Positions 37,329-49,729 are shown, counted from the stretch's first letter. The stretch: DNA of 64,000 nucleotides from Escherichia coli (GCF_041886205.1 NZ_CP169029.1), one strand, 5' to 3'. Program-made: numbers and translations. The notes: generated from the sequence alone by a model not told the origin.

Positions 37329-37892
37329 TCAGTTGTGTCGTGGTCGGCCGCGGTTGCTTTTTTCGGGAAGCCTGCTACGGCCCAGAATAATACCGTGTTC
37401 TTTCTGATCCTGTTTAGCCAGATAGCTAAGGGCGTAACGTAAGTTGTCTACCGCGGACTTATCACTATAGTGCATCACGTGATCGATACGCACCGGGTAT
37501 TTGTCTTTAGCCCGGCAAAGGTGAAAGTAACCCTCCCCTTCCGTGATCTGCCTCCAGATATCTCCCAGTTGCCTGGATATCTGATAAGAGTTCTTGTGAC
37601 GTTGCCCATCCAGGTAGCCGACAAAATGAATATGAAGCCCTTTGTTTTGTGTATATTCCATTACCCAGTAATATCCCGCCAACATCGATTGGGTTTCGCT
37701 AAGTAAGCGGTATATTTCCATACACATACTGTGCTTACAGCCATGACCAAAACTGGGCGTGTCTTTCCTGTAGGCAAAATCAATTCTGAAAGGTAACAGT
37801 TTAGAAAAACGTTGAAACAGACCTTCCATGTGTTCATTCACGTCTTTCAGAATCATGAAGTCCATTTCGTAATTGGGATTAGCATTATACAT
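37329..37892 (-). CDS. YagK/YfjJ-family (inovirus Gp2-like) protein
   Basis: 187 aa; motif GLHIHFVGYLDG; typical partner of AlpA/YfjI in CP4-57-like elements. Confidence 0.65.
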   Translation of the reverse strand: MYNANPNYEMDFMILKDVNEHMEGLFQRFSKLLPFRIDFAYRKDTPSFGHGCKHSMCMEIYRLLSETQSMLAGYYWVMEYTQNKGLHIHFVGYLDGQRHKNSYQISRQLGDIWRQITEGEGYFHLCRAKDKYPVRIDHVMHYSDKSAVDNLRYALSYLAKQDQKEHGIILGRSRLPEKSNRGRPRHN

Positions 37893-38858: not shown

Positions 38859-39176
38859 TCAGAGGTCAAAGTTAGGTGCGACACACAACGTTTTTCCCTC
38901 AATAACCGGTACAACTCTGTTTTGTTCATACAGTAAATCCAGTAACCAGTTGATTTTATCCTTTTTCCGGAAACGGTTCGGACCACGCTGTAAAATGTCA
39001 TTTTTTTTCATACAGAGGATCCCCTTCTCAATACAATAGCTTTTTATCCAGTTGAAAAGTTCAAGCTCCTCTGGAATGAGTCGCACAGGTACGGTCAGGG
39101 CAGAGTTGTCAAAAGTTAACGGATTAGACAACCGCACATACTCATTACCGTACCATATTGCTAATTCTCTCGCCAT
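38859..39176 (-). pseudogene. DUF3987 (YfjI-like) gene, C-terminal fragment, disrupted by IS186
   Basis: Frame continues from the IS186 junction. Confidence 0.5.
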
Positions 39177-39202
39177 TTCTGCAGTGTAAGGGGAAATATC
39201 CC

Positions 39203-40541
39203 CATAAGCGCTAACTTAAGGGTTGTGGTATTACGCCTGATATGATTTAACGTGCCGATGAATTACTCTCACGATAACTGGTCAGCAATTCTGGCCCATA
39301 TTGGTAAGCCCGAAGAACTGGATACTTCGGCACGTAATGCCGGGGCTCTAACCCGCCGCCGCGAAATTCGTGATGCTGCAACTCTGCTACGTCTGGGGCT
39401 GGCTTACGGCCCCGGGGGGATGTCATTACGTGAAGTCACTGCATGGGCTCAGCTCCATGACGTTGCAACATTATCTGACGTGGCTCTCCTGAAGCGGCTG
39501 CGGAATGCCGCCGACTGGTTTGGCATACTTGCCGCACAAACACTTGCTGTACGCGCCGCAGTTACGGGTTGTACAAGCGGAAAGAGATTGCGTCTTGTCG
39601 ATGGAACAGCAATCAGTGCGCCCGGGGGCGGCAGCGCTGAATGGCGACTACATATGGGATATGATCCTCATACCTGTCAGTTCACTGATTTTGAGCTAAC
39701 CGACAGCAGAGACGCTGAACGGCTGGACCGATTTGCGCAAACGGCAGACGAGATACGCATTGCTGACCGGGGATTCGGTTCGCGTCCCGAATGTATCCGC
39801 TCACTTGCTTTTGGAGAAGCTGATTATATCGTCCGGGTTCACTGGCGAGGATTGCGCTGGTTAACTGCAGAAGGAATGCGCTTTGACATGATGGGTTTTC
39901 TGCGCGGGCTGGATTGCGGTAAGAACGGTGAAACCACTGTAATGATAGGCAATTCAGGTAATAAAAAAGCCGGAGCTCCCTTTCCGGCACGTCTCATTGC
40001 CGTATCACTTCCTCCCGAAAAAGCATTAATCAGTAAAACCCGACTGCTCAGCGAGAATCGTCGAAAAGGACGAGTAGTTCAGGCGGAAACGCTGGAAGCA
40101 GCGGGCCATGTGCTATTGCTAACATCATTACCGGAAGATGAATATTCAGCAGAGCAAGTGGCTGATTGTTACCGTCTGCGATGGCAAATTGAACTGGCTT
40201 TTAAGCGGCTCAAAAGTTTGCTGCACCTGGATGCTTTGCGTGCAAAGGAACCTGAACTCGCGAAAGCGTGGATATTTGCTAATCTACTCGCCGCATTTTT
40301 AATTGACGACATAATCCAGCCATCGCTGGATTTCCCCCCCAGAAGTGCCGGATCCGAAAAGAAGAACTAACTCGTTGTGGAGAATAACAAAAATGGTCAT
40401 CTGGAGCTTACAGGTGGCCATTCGTGGGACAGTATCCCTGACAGCCTACAAAACGCAATTGAAGAACGCGAGGCATCGTCTTAACGAGGCACCGAGGCGT
40501 CGCATTCTTCAGATGGTTCAACCCTTAAGTTAGCGCTTATG
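39203..40541 (+). mobile_element. IS186 (IS4 family) with 11-bp target duplication GGAAATATCCC
   Basis: 23-bp inverted repeats CATAAGCGCTAACTTAAGGGTTG at 39203-39225 and 40519-40541; direct repeats at 39192-39202 and 40542-40552. Confidence 0.85.
39252..40370 (+). CDS. insL: IS186 transposase (InsL)
   Basis: 372 aa; translation MNYSHDNWSAILAHIGKPEELDTSARNAGALTRRREIRDAATLLRLGLAYG... matches my recollection of IS186 InsL. Confidence 0.85.
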   Translation: MPMNYSHDNWSAILAHIGKPEELDTSARNAGALTRRREIRDAATLLRLGLAYGPGGMSLREVTAWAQLHDVATLSDVALLKRLRNAADWFGILAAQTLAVRAAVTGCTSGKRLRLVDGTAISAPGGGSAEWRLHMGYDPHTCQFTDFELTDSRDAERLDRFAQTADEIRIADRGFGSRPECIRSLAFGEADYIVRVHWRGLRWLTAEGMRFDMMGFLRGLDCGKNGETTVMIGNSGNKKAGAPFPARLIAVSLPPEKALISKTRLLSENRRKGRVVQAETLEAAGHVLLLTSLPEDEYSAEQVADCYRLRWQIELAFKRLKSLLHLDALRAKEPELAKAWIFANLLAAFLIDDIIQPSLDFPPRSAGSEKKN

Positions 40542-41660
40542 GGAAATATCCCCCTCTTCACCGCTCGAATGGTAAATAAGTCCTGCCAGTCTTGCCATAT
40601 ACTCTGCATTTTTAGCAGCATATTCCCGGCAATGTCTTAAAGGCCCCAATCCCCCCAGCTTCGATTCCACATCATTGTAATAATCCGTCCAGATTCTGGC
40701 AGCCTGAGGAGAAAAGTGAAGGCAACGTCGTTCACCACTCATCGCCAGACTTTCATCAATAAGCTCATTGATCCTCTCTTCAAACAAATCCTGATACTGT
40801 GATGAATAATTATCTCCGGTTATTATCCTTGTCCCCTGCGTTGATGTTGGTTGACACATCAAAAACCTTGCATGATGTCCTGACGTTTTCACAATTTCTT
40901 TTTTTCGCGTACAAAAACCTTTGTGGTAAACATCAGGCTGAATCATCACCGATATCGTCAGTCTTGGCTCCTTCAAATTAATTCCGGGAGATGATTTCCT
41001 GTCGATGAAAAGAGAACCTCCATCCCACAAAGTGTTAATAATTCCCAGTTTACTCATGGCCCGGCTGTCAAAAATTACCCCCCCTTCACTGGATACAAGA
41101 GCAAAAGAGCGATTGCTGTCGGAATAATATTTTAACATTCCCTCTATCGTTGTCTCATTAAAAATTGTTCGACGTATCTGCGGCGGAACAGGAGGTTTAT
41201 TCAGATGCGTTTCAAGCTCTGATTCTGTTGCCTTGTAATCTTTACCGGCACGAATCTCTTTATGAAATTTTGATTCCAGCGCTTTTTGTTTTTGCTCCCA
41301 TATTTCCTTTTCTGTACTGTAATTCTCAACCAGTTTCGCGTATTCTTCCGCCAGGGCTTCATCCCTGAGATAAAATGCTTTCATAAACACTTTATCCACG
41401 GTCGTTTTCCTTTCACCGGAATCAGCCAGAATCAGAGAGTAAAGATTAACAGGCCCATGTAAATTTCCAGGTCTGCACACGTCAATCTGATTCTGACAGG
41501 CAATTGAGATCGCTGTTAATGCGGATGTTGCCACCATAGCCAAAGGTGCCTGTGTATTTTTTTGAGTTTCAATTATTGCATTTCTCACCAGCGGTGGTAG
41601 TGCATATATCGGATAAGGATTTTCTGGTGCAAGTAAGCACATAAAAGCCTCTCTTTTCAT
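40530..41660 (-). pseudogene. DUF3987 (YfjI-like) gene, N-terminal 376 codons, disrupted by IS186
   Basis: Resembles CP4-57 YfjI; frame ends inside the IS186 terminal repeat. Confidence 0.55.
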
Positions 41661-41860: not shown

Positions 41861-42200
41861 CTAATACCTTTCCCCCGGTCTTTTCCCTTTCTCCAGAACC
41901 ATAGTGTAAATATTAACGGCCCCACGTAAATTTCCGGGACTGCATACGTCAACCTGATTCTGACAGGCAATTGACATCGCTGTTAATACTGACATTGCAA
42001 CCAGAGTCAGAGGTACTTGTTTATTGTATTGAGCTTTAATTATTGCCTTCCCTATCATTGATGGTCATGCATATACTGAATACGGCATATCCGGTTTGAT
42101 GTAAGACATAAATGCTTCCTTTTTCGTAATACGTTTCGGTTATAGCAGCAATTACCGCTACAATAGCGACAATAGCTGCTCTTTCAACAATGAATGCTGG
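41861..42200 (-). repeat. Degenerate tandem duplicate of the yfjI-like 5' end and upstream region
   Basis: 41900-42190 aligns with 41440-41700; the 65-aa ORF 41861..42058 repeats the N-terminal motif (...SIACQNQVDVCSPGNL...). Confidence 0.55.
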
Positions 42201-42284: not shown

Positions 42285-42593
42285 TTATCTGCTCATGGTC
42301 ATATCTGAAGAAAGCGTATGTCGCACTTCGTCATTAACACCTTTGACTGCTGATCTGGCAGGTACAGTATGTAAAGTAAGCCATTCGTCAATAGCTGATG
42401 AACGCCAGCCCACAGAACCACTACCAAGACGTACCGGCCTGGGGAAGGTTGCATCGTAGTATTTCGATAACGGATTCATTTTTTCGTAAATTGTCGAACG
42501 AGATATACCTAACAATTGGCTCAGTTCAGGCATCCGTAAGATGCGTGAAGGAGTCCAGCAGTATCCGGATTGATCTGGCATTTTATCCCCCAT
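42285..42593 (-). CDS. alpA: AlpA-family phage regulatory protein
   Basis: Motif RILRMPELSQLLGISRSTIYEKMN...YDATFPRPVRLGSGSVGWRSSAIDEWL. Confidence 0.7.
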   Translation of the reverse strand: MGDKMPDQSGYCWTPSRILRMPELSQLLGISRSTIYEKMNPLSKYYDATFPRPVRLGSGSVGWRSSAIDEWLTLHTVPARSAVKGVNDEVRHTLSSDMTMSR

Positions 42594-42786: not shown

Positions 42787-43553
42787 CCTGGTAATGACTC
42801 CAGTCAGTAGTACAGTGTTTTCGACAAATGAACCAATGGCTTTTCGTGAATTTCCAGGGAGCGTGAAAAGCAAATCGTTTTCCGGGCTGGTCGTTTGATG
42901 TGAGTACGAAGTGTCAGATTGTTGCACTCAATGCGCCGGGTAAATATCTTGCCGACAAGATGCTTATCCTGTGGCATTTCTCTGGTATAACTGCTCCGGT
43001 TGTCTCTGGTTATCATGCCTGTGGAGAATGGCTTCAGGAGTTCCGGCAACTCACGACATGTTTCATCAGTGCGAGGACCAAAAGTGTAAGCCAGCACACC
43101 TCCAGATTTGGTGTTATACGCATACCAGTGCCACTGCTGACGAGCTTTGTTTTCGACAAAACTCCATTGTTCATCAAGTTCGCAGATAAGCGTCACATCG
43201 GCACTGGCGACTGGAGATGTGGTTACTTTGCGTGGTGAGCGTTTTATAAAGTGAGAATGACGGTGTTGATATCCACCTTCAGCGTTCTGGAACTATCGCG
43301 AACCCCGACTCCGTTATGAACCATTTCAACAATTTGCTCTTTAATGCCTGGTTTTCGGGTTTCGTAGATGTAATTCAGTTGAAATACACACGTTTGCAGG
43401 ATTAGCACTGGAAACGCTCATGATCTGAGGTGCTGTGATCATAATGGTACACTTTATAGGAATTACAGCTGGGAGAATGTACTGTAACTGTTGCCATATG
43501 GTCTCCAGATACCAATAGAATACCACATTAATCTATCGTCAGAAGGCATCACC
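42787..43553 (-). mobile_element. Divergent IS1-family element
   Basis: 767 bp; IS1-like termini (GGTAATGACTCCAG... and ...GAAGGCATCACC); InsA-like C-terminus (MVHNGVGVRDSSRTLKVDINTVIL) and InsB-like ORF. Confidence 0.6.
42804..43196 (-). CDS. IS1-family InsB-like protein
   Basis: 130 aa; resembles IS1 InsB (DEQW...RQ.W..YAY...TQRIE.NL.LR.H..R). Confidence 0.6.
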   Translation of the reverse strand: MTLICELDEQWSFVENKARQQWHWYAYNTKSGGVLAYTFGPRTDETCRELPELLKPFSTGMITRDNRSSYTREMPQDKHLVGKIFTRRIECNNLTLRTHIKRPARKTICFSRSLEIHEKPLVHLSKTLYY

Positions 43554-43693
43554 GGGGCCTTCTGACATAATCTGTTAATACGTGTACTATTACCCTGTTC
43601 AGAAAATATTGATTCAAAAATGAAAACCAGTTAACAGAAAAGCAAAATGATATAATGTTAAAATTTTATATAGTGCAATAAAAGGAGAATGTT

Positions 43694-45511
43694 ATGTATA
43701 ATTTTATCACTATAATGTATGATGTCTTTTCATGTTTTGGTGTTCTGGCTAAAAACCAGAATACCCGTGACATCCGAAATATTAAAAATTTTTCCTCACA
43801 TCAATATTCACTGGGCGACATGTTTGATGAATTAATAAACATTATTGATAAAGAACAAGTATTGAGTACAGAACAACGAAAAGTTATATTTAGGAGATAT
43901 GAAGATCTCTATGTTAAGCTAATGCACTATTCTGTTTTTACAGACCAAACACATCAAATAATAAAACAAAAATATTTTAATGACATTGTACCAATGATTC
44001 TCGCACTCGACATCAGGAACACATATCGCCCGGATAATGAGATGGCATTTTACTATCATATTCATTCTTTTCTCACTCAGATACCGGATAATGAGGATGA
44101 TATATATCATGCTGCAAGGACATATCTGCGAAATTACGTTAAGTTATGTTTATCCGGATACACACCAGCGAATGCGCATTTCAAAGATATCTTTGATGGC
44201 GTATATGAATTCATTCGTAATATTCGCAAAAACAGTACACCAGGAAAAACAAAACTTATCGCAACTATCAACACATGCAAAGAAACCTGTAAACATCTGC
44301 TTTATTTAAGTAATGAAGACAAGGAAAAAATAATTTCTGACTTAGATAAAGTTCAGGTTGCATGTTATTATCTCACTATATTACTGGCTTTCGAAAGACG
44401 AACTTCATTAACAAGCACCCTGGCAACTTTATATAAAATGCTGATAAGCGAAAGAGAAGTTTCAGAATATGAATGCCAGTTATTATATTTAACCAACCCA
44501 ATAGATGTAATGAATATACTGAACAAATACATATATTACTTTCCTAATGAAAACTCACCATTTTATACACTGAAAATTGACAGTGCATTATCGTGGGATG
44601 CCATTGACGCAATACGAGACTATAGTATTTCTGATATTTATCTTTATCCTGAACAAAAAACAATAAATTGTGTCGTTGAGATTGAAAACATTGTCTTTGG
44701 CGGTTACATTTATACATTGAACAACGGCGTCACATTACAAAACATAGAAAACACTTTAAAAGATTCTTCATGCCATTATGTCTTAAATGGCTATACAGAA
44801 TTTGTTAACTGTTTGATACAACTTACTTCAGGAAAGACTGAAAGTGTTCATCGCACCATCAATAAACTGAACTATGAGAAATTACCTTTTGGATTTATCA
44901 TTGCCGCGTTTGCTATACTAAAGATAGCATTTAAAATAAAATTCAGTAAAAATCATGTAAATATCCGAGCATTATTAAATGACATCAATTATTTTATGAC
45001 TTATCAGGGCGAGTCCATTAACCTTATTTCACTGGATCACGAATACCCAGAGTCCTGTCTTCAAAATGACACAAACACATATTTATTAGGAAGAGTAATA
45101 TTTCTGTATAACTCAATGATTTATAAGTTCATAAACTGTCAGGAACATGAAACCAATAACATTCACTCAGCTATGATAAATAACCTATTACAGGAAGTTG
45201 ATATAGCCCTTGGTAAAATAAATAACATTATAGACAGCAGAAACATATCAGCCCCCCATGAACTGGCAAATATTCTTACCCGCGAAAAAATACTTACAAC
45301 ACGGGAAAAAAAAGGAAACCTGATAAGCCTGTTTGATGGATTCACTTTATTCCATTGTGTTGGAATGATAACCTTTCTTATCCATTATCTCAGAACACCT
45401 GAAGAAAAAGTTGAAAATATATTTATGTTATATGGTGCAGATAAAAACAATAAACTACGCAGAAGACTGATTTATGACGCACTAGGAATAATTCAGTCTC
45501 AGCAGGAGTGA
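43694..45511 (+). CDS. Hypothetical protein, 605 aa, AT-rich orphan in the int-alpA variable slot
   Basis: Long uninterrupted ORF; very low GC versus flanks; no motif I can recognise. Confidence 0.5.
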   Translation: MYNFITIMYDVFSCFGVLAKNQNTRDIRNIKNFSSHQYSLGDMFDELINIIDKEQVLSTEQRKVIFRRYEDLYVKLMHYSVFTDQTHQIIKQKYFNDIVPMILALDIRNTYRPDNEMAFYYHIHSFLTQIPDNEDDIYHAARTYLRNYVKLCLSGYTPANAHFKDIFDGVYEFIRNIRKNSTPGKTKLIATINTCKETCKHLLYLSNEDKEKIISDLDKVQVACYYLTILLAFERRTSLTSTLATLYKMLISEREVSEYECQLLYLTNPIDVMNILNKYIYYFPNENSPFYTLKIDSALSWDAIDAIRDYSISDIYLYPEQKTINCVVEIENIVFGGYIYTLNNGVTLQNIENTLKDSSCHYVLNGYTEFVNCLIQLTSGKTESVHRTINKLNYEKLPFGFIIAAFAILKIAFKIKFSKNHVNIRALLNDINYFMTYQGESINLISLDHEYPESCLQNDTNTYLLGRVIFLYNSMIYKFINCQEHETNNIHSAMINNLLQEVDIALGKINNIIDSRNISAPHELANILTREKILTTREKKGNLISLFDGFTLFHCVGMITFLIHYLRTPEEKVENIFMLYGADKNNKLRRRLIYDALGIIQSQQE

Positions 45512-46901: not shown

Positions 46902-47061
46902 ACGCTAATTCCCGTCACTCTGGTATGCCATCCAGTATGCCATTAGTCTCTCGCTTCACTAAGAATACATTAGATAATATCGGACAACAAAAAGTGTAAT
47001 ACATTGTTTATAATGAAATTATATAACACCCCTGGATTAAGTCAGATTTATTTCAGGCGGT

Positions 47062-47522
47062 CCCCCTCACCGCCATATTTAAAGAAGAGCTCGTACGAAA
47101 GTACGGGCTTTTTTTTCGTATATTGCACACACCGGGGGGATGAGAATCCCCGACCGGGGGTCGACAACTGGCGGCAGCCAGTTGGACAGACCGTGAACGC
47201 AGTGAGCGGGCTGCCCGCAGGGCGAGCGAAGCGAGTCAATCCCCCCCTCACCGCCATATTTAAAGAAGAGCTCGTACGAAAGTACGGGCTTTTTTTTTCG
47301 TATATTGCACACACCGGGGGGATGAGAATCCCCGACCGGGGGTCGACAACTGGCGACAGCCAGTTGGACAGACCGTGAACGCAGTGAGCGGGCTGCCCGC
47401 AGGGCGAGCGAAGCGAGTCAATCCCCCCCTCACCGCCATATTTAAAGAAGAGCTCGTACGAAAGTACGGGCTTTTTTTCGTGTATTGCACACACCGGGGG
47501 GATGAGAATCCCCGACCGGGAT
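47062..47522 (+). repeat. Tandem ~180-bp repeats (about 2.6 copies), each beginning with a tRNA-Ser(GGA)-like 3'-end copy (attachment core)
   Basis: Unit starts at about 47062, 47243 and 47424; copies 2 and 3 carry AATCCCCCCCTCACCGCCA; each unit also contains a hairpin plus T-run (GCTCGTACGAAAGTACGGGCTTTTTTT) and further stem-loops. Confidence 0.7.
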
Positions 47523-47528
47523 ACTTAG

Positions 47529-48215
47529 TTAATGCAACGGTTCACTCTTTGTCGCCGCGACTAATGGGCGAATTTTGTCACGAGTCTCCCAGACCGGAGG
47601 GATTTCCTCCAATTTAGTGACAGAAGCTCGTACAAAAGGCACTCGTGCAAGAGTCATAATCGTATCCAACCAACGGTCACGAATAATGCGATCCGCCCTT
47701 TCATGACTCGGGTCATCCAGCTCAATAACACAGACTATTTTATTGTTCTTCTTTGAAACCAGAACATAATCCATTGCCATGCCATTATAAATTGCAAAGA
47801 AACGCTTTCTTTCTTCTTCGCTAAACTCAGGTTGTTCTGGATAGTTGAGCAAGCGCCCCAGAGAGACCTGGCAATGGATATGACAATAATGTCCAAACCA
47901 TTTCTCCAGATTATCGAAATACATTTTTTCACAACGCGTGATTAACCACTCTTTTCCTTCCAATAAAATACCTTCGGCAACCATTCCCTGAAATAACTCA
48001 TCTCGTTCTTGCCAACGAGAGTCACGATAGGTTTTCTGCGGTATATAGGTCCTTGTCGACGACTTAGCAGCAGGGGAAGTTGCAGATGAAGGGACTGGTT
48101 GCGATTTAGCGATGATTACCGATGAGGCAACTTTTCGGAGTGTCAATTTTCTGGCAACAGCAAAACCGGCGACAAATGCAATTGTCAAACAAGTTACAAA
48201 AGCCATAAAGCTCAT
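47529..48215 (-). CDS. DUF2726-like membrane-anchored protein (restriction-endonuclease-like fold)
   Basis: 228 aa; N-terminal TM helix; C-terminal motif KIVCVIELDDPSHERADRIIRDRWLD. Confidence 0.45.
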   Translation of the reverse strand: MSFMAFVTCLTIAFVAGFAVARKLTLRKVASSVIIAKSQPVPSSATSPAAKSSTRTYIPQKTYRDSRWQERDELFQGMVAEGILLEGKEWLITRCEKMYFDNLEKWFGHYCHIHCQVSLGRLLNYPEQPEFSEEERKRFFAIYNGMAMDYVLVSKKNNKIVCVIELDDPSHERADRIIRDRWLDTIMTLARVPFVRASVTKLEEIPPVWETRDKIRPLVAATKSEPLH

Positions 48216-48766
48216 AATTAATTTTCACTTATCCATGTTGATTATATTTCATTACCAATGTTACTCGCTGAAGCGTGTTACATGCCAACAATGCAACGAT
48301 CAATATATAGTTAGTATCATGTTTTGATTATTACAACCATCCCTATTTTGCCATTGCAGCTTGCCTTCCACAAAAAAAATAACAACAAACAATATTAGCC
48401 AAAGAATTAATTAAGATTAACCTTGCATTTATAATATTATCCCTAAAGAATAAATCAGAGGAATATATTCGGTGTTAATCAGTCAGTCAAATTATGGCCC
48501 ATTGTTGATTAAACCTCATAAGCAAAATTGGCACCAGATCTCCTGTACAGGTTGAATGGCCGAAAAAAGATAGGCAGATGCTCGCTTTTTTGGCTTCTGG
48601 AAGAAAAACTCTCCGCACTGGCAGTATTACACTGGTCTGATGCTATGACGAAAAATGCCTGGTAAGAGTATCTAAACCAGACTCCAGTTCAGCTTATCAA
48701 CACGCTCAAAGTCGCCCCCCTGAACGCTAACCTGAAGTTAAAGTCTTTGCTGTTAATGAAATAAAA

Positions 48767-48790
48767 CAAAGCCCGGTTCGCCCGGGCTCT
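48767..48790 (-). terminator. Rho-independent terminator of phoH
   Basis: Minus-strand GCCCGGGCGAACCGGGC hairpin followed by TTTGTTTT. Confidence 0.55.
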
Positions 48791-48805
48791 GCACCGATAA
48801 CACAC

Positions 48806-49729
48806 TTAACTGTATGCATGCAGCGTACGTTGGCAAAGTGCCGAACGTACGCAATCCTCTTTACCGAACCGGACGATCCCAACCATTTCATCTTCTTCGA
48901 AACGTTCCAGCGCGTCACTTAATCCGGAGCACACGCCGCGAGGCAAATCGCATTGCGTGATATCACCGTTGACGATAACTGTCACGTTCTCCCCGAGGCG
49001 GGTTAAAAACATTTTCATTTGCGCGGCAGTCACATTCTGCGCCTCGTCAAGAATGACGACTGCATTTTCAAAGGTACGTCCACGCATATAGGCGAAAGGC
49101 GCAATTTCCACCTTCCCTATTTCCGGTCGCAGGCAGTACTGCATAAAGGAAGCCCCTAAGCGCCGGACCAGCACGTCGTAAACCGGGCGAAAATAGGGAG
49201 CAAACTTTTCTGCGATATCTCCAGGTAAGAAGCCAAGATCTTCATCGGCTTGCAGAACTGGACGGGTGACGATAATCCTGTCGACATCCTTATGTATCAG
49301 GGCCTCTGCCGCTTTTGCTGCGCTGATCCAGGTTTTTCCGCACCCGGCTTCGCCCGTGGCGAATATCAGCTGCTTACTCTCAATAGCCTTCAGATAGTGC
49401 AATTGCGCTTCATTACGCGCGAGGATGGGCGAAGTATCGCGACTGTCGCGGGCCATACCAATGGCTTCTACGCCGCTCATTTGCACAAGCGAGGTGACCG
49501 ATTCTTCTTCACGCTGCTTATGGCTGCGCGAATCCCGTCTCAGCACACGTTTTGCCTCGCGACGAGCTTTGATCACTGCTTTTTGTCTTCCCATGGAGAG
49601 CACCTTGAGTTGTTTGTATTCATCACACGCGCCGTTGGCAGCGCGATTATGCGCACGAACATCAGAGGGTTGGCTTCCTTGTAAGCCATAGTTTGCTTTT
49701 GGATAAAATGCCGAAAAACGGCTACGCAC
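48806..49729 (-). CDS. phoH: PhoH (phosphate-starvation-inducible ATPase); start codon uncertain
   Basis: PhoH/YbeZ motifs (GEAGCGKT, VILDEAQN); synteny with efeB. Confidence 0.85.
   Translation of the reverse strand: MRSRFSAFYPKANYGLQGSQPSDVRAHNRAANGACDEYKQLKVLSMGRQKAVIKARREAKRVLRRDSRSHKQREEESVTSLVQMSGVEAIGMARDSRDTSPILARNEAQLHYLKAIESKQLIFATGEAGCGKTWISAAKAAEALIHKDVDRIIVTRPVLQADEDLGFLPGDIAEKFAPYFRPVYDVLVRRLGASFMQYCLRPEIGKVEIAPFAYMRGRTFENAVVILDEAQNVTAAQMKMFLTRLGENVTVIVNGDITQCDLPRGVCSGLSDALERFEEDEMVGIVRFGKEDCVRSALCQRTLHAYS

Follow-up and report, generated by a model that had tools for sequence, protein, structure and literature searches.

A 605-codon gene of unassigned role is the constant divergent partner of alpA in a common class of enterobacterial integrative islands

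Where a gene is transcribed away from the excision/replication operon of a mobile element, with a short conserved control region between them, it is classically the regulator of the element. In CTXphi, RstR adjoins the gpII-like rstA, and in lambda the rexAB genes adjoin cI. In PICIs, Stl/Rpr are encoded next to xis-pri-rep in divergent orientation, and in AlpA-type islands of Gram-negative bacteria AlpA is an activator, whereas it is unclear if there is a global repressor (PMC6092414). In Pseudomonas, genomic islands at the tmRNA site that carry intY, alpA and Gp2-like genes are moved by a jumbo phage (PMC12595487). Here we analyzed a stretch of 64,000 nucleotides from Escherichia coli (GCF_041886205.1, NZ_CP169029.1), hereafter the window, and a 605-aa gene within it, hereafter X. 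We show that X belongs to the core genes of CP4-57/SpLE1-type integrative islands, as the divergent partner of alpA-yfjI-yfjJ. The features of the locus are as follows.

37329-37892, minus strand: yfjJ / inovirus Gp2-type gene, the last of the alpA operon (by comparison with C10)
39252-40370, plus strand: IS4-family transposase gene interrupting yfjI (NF033592, 133 bits against a cut-off of 115)
40530-41660, minus strand: yfjI (DUF3987), N-terminal 77% (tblastn, covering 77% of YfjI from strain C10 at 100% identity)
41861-42058, minus strand: remnant of a second DUF3987 N-terminus, 65 aa (ORF; annotated in ZYB62 as 'DUF3987 domain-containing protein')
42285-42581, minus strand: alpA-type HTH regulator/excisionase gene, divergent from X (RefSeq name)
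42790-43553, minus strand: decayed IS1 copy in the alpA-X intergenic region, with the ends GGTAATGACTCC... and ...GGCATCACC
43683-43687, plus strand: Shine-Dalgarno sequence AGGAG of X, 6 nt 5′ of the ATG (read from the sequence)
43694-45511, plus strand: X, with ATG at 43694, stop at 45511 and 605 codons
45699-46901, minus strand: tyrosine integrase gene (int), convergent with X (ORF, NCBIfam integrase domain and RefSeq)

X is a real, expressed and selected gene. For DNA of this composition, a run of 605 codons without a stop has a probability of about 1e-21, and each of the other five frames contains 39-63 stops across the gene. The start at 43694 is supported by distant relatives, which align from residues 1-3, and translation of X is seen in EHEC, from its own start and separately from the alpA operon. 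When X was compared with a 92% identical allele, dN/dS was 0.205 (int, 0.049; alpA, 0.074; yfjJ, 0.177), and this value of about 0.2 indicates purifying selection on X. The IS1 remnant beside it is down to 89% identity with 17 gaps relative to the LH50-c copy. X was present, at nucleotide identity of at least 90%, in 1036 of the 5426 complete E. coli genomes, and in all records among the matches listed it is annotated as 'hypothetical protein'. The GC content of X is 0.32 (GC3 0.295), versus 0.49 for int and about 0.5 for the chromosome flanks. In every lineage, X is also the gene of the module with the lowest GC (28-39%, versus 39-49% for alpA), and low GC is therefore a trait of the whole X family and not a sign of recent separate acquisition. 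Rare E. coli alleles end at about residue 540 (541-546 aa) by slippage in either a C run (45252-45258) or an A8 run (45306-45313), which are their frameshift sites; these alleles could reflect slippage, phase variation or sequencing error.

The product of the alpA-type gene in the window, which RefSeq names 'helix-turn-helix / AlpA family transcriptional regulator', is 54-77% identical to the Phage_AlpA (PF05930) genes of related loci, and the yfjJ product is 98% identical to the 'inovirus-type Gp2 protein' of C10. The IS1 copy is annotated in a near-identical locus as 'IS1 family transposase, frameshifted; internal stop' by RefSeq, and it was kept in all block-carrying genomes among those listed. 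About 1026 E. coli genomes have inherited it together with the block, at several chromosomal sites, and a possible decayed target duplication borders it, (g)aggccct / ggggcctt. The 65-aa DUF3987 remnant between alpA and yfjI is a trace of past recombination between modules. The element that disrupts yfjI is IS186-like, the disrupted stretch spanning 38859-41660, and the replication module in the window copy is probably dead. On the other side, the stop codons of X and int are 187 bp apart. Beyond the integrase start, a tandem repeat with a unit of 182 bp (2.5 copies, 98% match) occupies 47062-47520, up to the DUF2726 gene, and is possibly the attachment-site region. ARAGORN found no tRNA anywhere in the window; elsewhere, the same integrase type is located at serW/serX-region sites. 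As in C10, int is followed directly by the DUF2726 gene (47529-48215, minus strand) and then by phoH, and the ycdU-IS3-dgcT-pgaABCD genes, located between int and phoH in ZYB62, are absent at 46902-48806. Opposite the 3′ part of phoH, there is a match to Rfam Ysr251, an antisense sRNA family (188 bits, 48811-49004, plus strand).

The position of X was compared among loci fetched around its relatives: those of six protein clusters and of nine species-representative genomes, that of the most distant relative, and three IMG/VR contigs. In each locus, AlpA, YfjI/DUF3987, YfjJ/Gp2 and Int were located by tblastn and precomputed Pfam calls. In all of the retrieved loci, which represent about 17 non-redundant lineages and include the most distant relative (19% identity) and the three IMG/VR contigs, X was divergent from alpA-DUF3987, with YfjJ usually next in line. 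The integrase gene was found on either side of the module. The commonest order was int, cargo, yfjJ, yfjI, alpA / X, cargo, and in most lineages X is not located between int and alpA, because int lies beyond yfjJ/yfjI. In the window type and in CP4-57 of K-12, the module is reversed so that the 3′ end of the partner gene is toward int. In E. coli O104:H4, an integrase 96% identical to that of the window was found with the other layout and with an X of the divergent E. coli type.

Within E. coli, the block of alpA, IS1 remnant, X and int was intact in 1026 of the 5426 complete genomes, located beside clpA (serW region), ycdU or phoH, and accompanied by inositol (iol) genes, sugar-acid genes or O157 island genes as cargo. 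Because the block is kept whole across these sites and cargo types, X belongs to the backbone and not to the cargo. In accordance with that, four Providencia islands carried the same X with differing defense cargo on both sides. Defense genes were found beyond yfjJ or past the 3′ end of X, and included OLD+UvrD (Gabija-like), reverse transcriptases, HEPN-Toprim, Mrr, Abi, type I RM, SIR2-HerA and GmrSD. In several E. coli islands of the family, yfjJ is followed by a gene annotated as 'TOTE conflict system archaeo-eukaryotic primase domain', of which the C10 and ZYB62 type retains only a frameshifted remnant.

These results bear on a first-pass annotation of the same stretch, which had pointed out a 605-aa AT-rich ORF between int and alpA on the opposite strand. 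The ORF is indeed real, as the Shine-Dalgarno sequence, the stop-free run, the selection and the translation in EHEC all agree, and its coordinates and position were as described; that description left out both the IS1 copy between X and alpA and the broken yfjI. The further claim that the position between int and alpA is a variable slot does not hold, because X is fixed relative to alpA and int lies at either end, nor does the view of X as swappable cargo, since the 1026 E. coli blocks and the four Providencia islands keep X while the cargo changes. The survey of the equivalent slot in other elements, which the annotation had proposed, found X conserved there. A content that differs among close elements, as in hotspots of defense cargo, was not observed for X. 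For the anti-phage role that the annotation had put forward, the analysis gave neither support nor refutation, and this role is kept as a rival and not as the leading reading.

Searches of Pfam, NCBIfam, PHROGs and PDB gave no significant match for X and its relatives by sequence (for PDB, also by profile), where Pfam was run on X singly and on every family member. PHROGs gave 0 matches for X, and PADLOC-DB v2.0.0 gave 0 families for X at E ≤ 1 and for three relatives and YfjH at E ≤ 0.1. Nor did tblastn match X to any of 50,697 phage records. An exhaustive HMMER search of 1.8 billion representatives found 31 proteins with X, about 15 of them full-length at 19-35% identity, and a profile search of a word-indexed protein database found no relatives beyond those known. 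The relatives found by sequence are confined to Enterobacterales, with Escherichia, Yersinia, Kluyvera, Hafnia, Dickeya, Edwardsiella, Providencia, Proteus, Morganella, Citrobacter and Klebsiella as the named genera, and all are labelled 'hypothetical'. Invariant residues in the family alignment are few (N473, L499 and K508), and no catalytic-looking motif was found in it. No internal repeats were detected when four segments of X were compared with each other by hhalign.

The AlphaFold model of X, calculated with the family alignment, had a pLDDT of 84.8 and a pTM of 0.85, with 29 helices and no strands. With this model, Foldseek against AFDB50 matched only the X family itself, adding members from Leclercia, Pantoea, Salmonella, Shigella, Aeromonas and Burkholderia (those from Aeromonas and Burkholderia being found by structure and not by sequence) and a 930-aa E. 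coli protein, A0A3L0W2L1, named 'HTH domain-containing'. No solved structure corresponded to the model, and Foldseek against BFVD gave a best E of 0.35, indicating no viral counterpart. Pfam found neither the HTH that would be expected of a Stl/Rpr-like repressor nor another DNA-binding domain in X or 15 relatives, the best being HTH_73 in one member (E 0.085). Across the family, the pI varies between 5.7 and 9.2, without a consistent positive charge. X is thus predicted to fold as a compact all-alpha protein that lacks an enzyme-like signature and any detectable DNA-binding domain, and its family is an uncharacterized protein family of new fold. The label 'orphan' of the first-pass annotation holds only in that no relative of known function was found, since full-length relatives do exist at 19-35% identity. 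Its observation that no catalytic motif could be recognized was borne out by the alignment and by the Pfam, NCBIfam, PADLOC, PHROG and PDB searches. The structure prediction that it had suggested gave a confident all-alpha model without a solved or viral counterpart, and neither profile nor fold searches revealed clear homology to a known non-defense family.

Inspection of the alpA-X gap showed that it is 98-103 bp long in six lineages, that it measures about 100 bp in most enterobacterial lineages, and that its DNA is conserved across genera. X is divergent in all loci, and in this arrangement across a short region it agrees with Stl/Rpr-like repressors. The consensus of the gap ends with ...ATACTGTCCCCGTAAAAAAACGGAAACCAACCGGAGG directly 5′ of the start codon of X, and GAAACCAA(C/T) was invariant just 5′ of the ribosome-binding site of X in eight of the fetched loci. 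A consensus scan of the conserved 100-bp region found no sigma-70-like promoter at threshold, and overlapping promoters that had been read there by eye were therefore dropped. The gap also contains a 5-bp inverted repeat with compensatory changes (TCTCA-N7-TGAGA versus TGCCA-N7-TGGCA), in which 77% of cells were paired, compared with 31-46% when the partner columns were slid. We considered this repeat as a sign of DNA binding by X, and set this aside because islands of the YfjH type (described below) have similar half-sites; for this reason, the repeat is more likely an AlpA site than an X site.

We also compared the divergence of X with that of the other genes. Pairwise identity between lineages was 23-39% for X and 40-77% for AlpA, and X is the fastest-evolving gene of the module. 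In a small sample of pairs that are not independent, the divergence of X correlated with that of AlpA (Spearman rho = 0.83) and YfjI (0.74), and the value for Int was 0.09. In Kluyvera, X is 81% identical to the Yersinia/Hafnia-type protein and AlpA is 93% identical to that of Yersinia ruckeri, while YfjI is only 33% identical. X was split by a frameshift or a duplication in 4 of the 9 species-representative genomes (once by an 18-bp duplication and once in an A8 run), and in two of these four the rest of the module looks intact. A split X with an intact module is easier to reconcile with an accessory gene that is dispensable or costly than with an essential repressor. In addition, X is selected in the window lineage despite the IS1 gap to alpA and the broken yfjI, which suggests that it has a function that does not need the module.

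In CP4-57 of K-12, the place of X between int and alpA is held by YfjH (b2623), which is likewise divergent from alpA-yfjI-yfjJ. We tested X and YfjH for homology and rejected it, with a BLASTP E of 0.4 and hhalign probabilities of 0.04% (single sequence) and 0.17% (profile versus profile). YfjH is similar to X in that it is AT-rich, uncharacterized and kept beside alpA in other genera. It is, however, about 290-318 aa long, compared with 605 aa for X, and its model suggests a mixed alpha/beta N-terminal part at lower confidence, whereas that of X is all-alpha. Relatives of YfjH with 44-60% identity, from Yersinia and other enterobacteria, are divergent from alpA at a distance of about 115-125 bp. 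Because X and YfjH are unrelated and each is fixed in its lineage, at least two families hold the place opposite alpA. The only functional hint for YfjH is a screen in which its overexpression blocked RcaT, the toxin of retron-Sen2 (bioRxiv 10.1101/2020.06.22.160242). The first 27 residues of annotated YfjH are predicted to be disordered and its relatives are 287-298 aa long; the annotated start of K-12 yfjH is probably too far upstream, and a shorter start makes the yfjH-alpA gap about 120 bp, matching the relatives.

The reading that we tentatively place first is that X controls, or senses for, the excision/replication switch of alpA. It is suggested by analogy only, as the place of X matches that of the master regulator in other mobile elements, and we put it first because X occupies the classic position of a divergent regulator, because there is no other repressor candidate (no other repressor-like gene of the core module was called in the retrieved loci) and because the repressor question is open in PMC6092414. 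The name 'HTH domain-containing' of the 930-aa structural relative also speaks for it. X would set the state of the alpA switch, either keeping the island quiet or coupling its induction to a signal. Given the lack of a detectable DNA-binding domain, X would not be a classical HTH repressor and may work by contacting other proteins (AlpA, YfjI, or one from an incoming phage or the host). In the window lineage, the old IS1 insertion would have uncoupled X from the alpA promoter region, with X staying intact. Several results count against this reading: X has neither an HTH nor a consistent positive charge, the 100-bp region has no consensus promoters and its inverted repeat is likelier to be an AlpA site, and X is fairly often pseudogenized, yet selected where IS1 separates it from alpA and yfjI is broken. 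A more specific proposal, which we regard as doubtful, is that the X family is the missing control protein of Gram-negative AlpA-type islands. X would then be a sensor or anti-activator of new fold, without an HTH, that restrains AlpA or its promoter and is released by a phage or host signal, and YfjH-like non-homologous analogues would have the same role in sister lineages.

The pseudogenization of X, together with its retention despite IS1 and a dead yfjI, fits an accessory, host-directed function, and three rival explanations were kept for this reason. It is rather unlikely that X is a single-gene anti-phage protein, acting by abortive infection or exclusion, expressed by the quiescent island for the benefit of the host, and retained in the core in the manner of rexAB beside cI in lambda. 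In favor of this, X has its own start and is expressed separately from the alpA operon, and an arms race would predict the fast evolution that distinguishes X within the module; frequent loss by frameshift and selection where the mobility module is broken also agree with this explanation. The islands with X carry defense systems (see also PMC12595487), but association with defense islands has no weight for a backbone gene, and defense cargo varies, whereas X is constant and keeps a fixed distance from alpA. Moreover, neither X nor three relatives matched PADLOC, and X has no effector-like domain, catalytic motif or fold match to known defense proteins.

Quite unlikely is the second explanation, in which X is an anti-defense or establishment factor that shields the island or its helper from host immunity when a new cell is entered. 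The blocking of RcaT by YfjH, which holds the same place in CP4-57 (bioRxiv 10.1101/2020.06.22.160242), would be in line with it; however, this result is a single match in an overexpression screen, and X and YfjH are unrelated by profile comparison. The quick evolution of X and its predicted all-alpha, binder-like fold also agree with such a factor. Nevertheless, 605 aa is large compared with known anti-defense proteins, and X has no phage homologue by sequence or structure.

We consider it improbable that X is an accessory of island replication or mobilization, working with the helicase-like YfjI and the Gp2-like initiator YfjJ. The linkage of X with yfjI and yfjJ is constant and the divergence of X correlates with that of YfjI (rho = 0.74), but in Kluyvera a close X and a close AlpA are kept beside a YfjI that is only 33% identical, and X is under selection where yfjI is disrupted. 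In addition, X is on the opposite strand, outside the operon, and its model suggests no nucleic-acid enzyme fold. Finally, that X is an inner-membrane protein, as some UniProt fragments are named (E. coli X fragments carry 'Membrane protein' labels in AFDB), is most improbable and the label is unlikely to be right, because its one hydrophobic stretch (residues 397-415, mean Kyte-Doolittle 2.0) is an amphipathic helix in relatives (LPxGYLxSAFxxIxLALKIKL) and is modeled as a buried helix of a compact globule (pLDDT about 95), and the GRAVY of X is negative.

X is a constant companion of alpA in an enterobacterial island class that is very common. It occurs in about one in five complete E. coli genomes, among them O157:H7 (often in two copies), O111 and O145, as well as a Nissle-derived strain and UM146, and its only annotation is 'hypothetical protein'. 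X is the sole backbone gene without an assigned role in the CP4-57/SpLE1-type islands, which carry genes for tellurite resistance, urease and adhesins, metabolic clusters and many defense systems. For the repressor question on AlpA-type islands (PMC6092414), X is a concrete candidate gene. For those who search for defense genes, a caution is that a gene adjacent to the integrase and low in GC is not necessarily cargo.

The family of islands with X is rich in defense genes, as are the satellites and islands with hotspots of defense cargo (P4-like elements; AbpAB, which corresponds to yfjK/yfjL of CP4-57), but hotspot cargo varies between close elements and matches defense HMMs, and X does neither. 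The Pseudomonas islands at the tmRNA site resemble the islands with X in having a tyrosine integrase, AlpA, an inovirus Gp2-like protein and defense cargo, although no homologue of X is reported for them (PMC12595487). Stl/Rpr of PICIs/SaPIs are HTH DNA-binding repressors of about 250 aa, unlike X, with 605 aa and no detectable HTH. Nevertheless, Stl/Rpr and RstR of CTXphi are, like X, divergent from an excision/replication operon across a short regulatory region, and Stl/Rpr, again like X, are highly divergent between elements while their position is conserved. The divergent Stl proteins of SaPIs would offer a parallel if X and YfjH, as unrelated proteins, shared one role.
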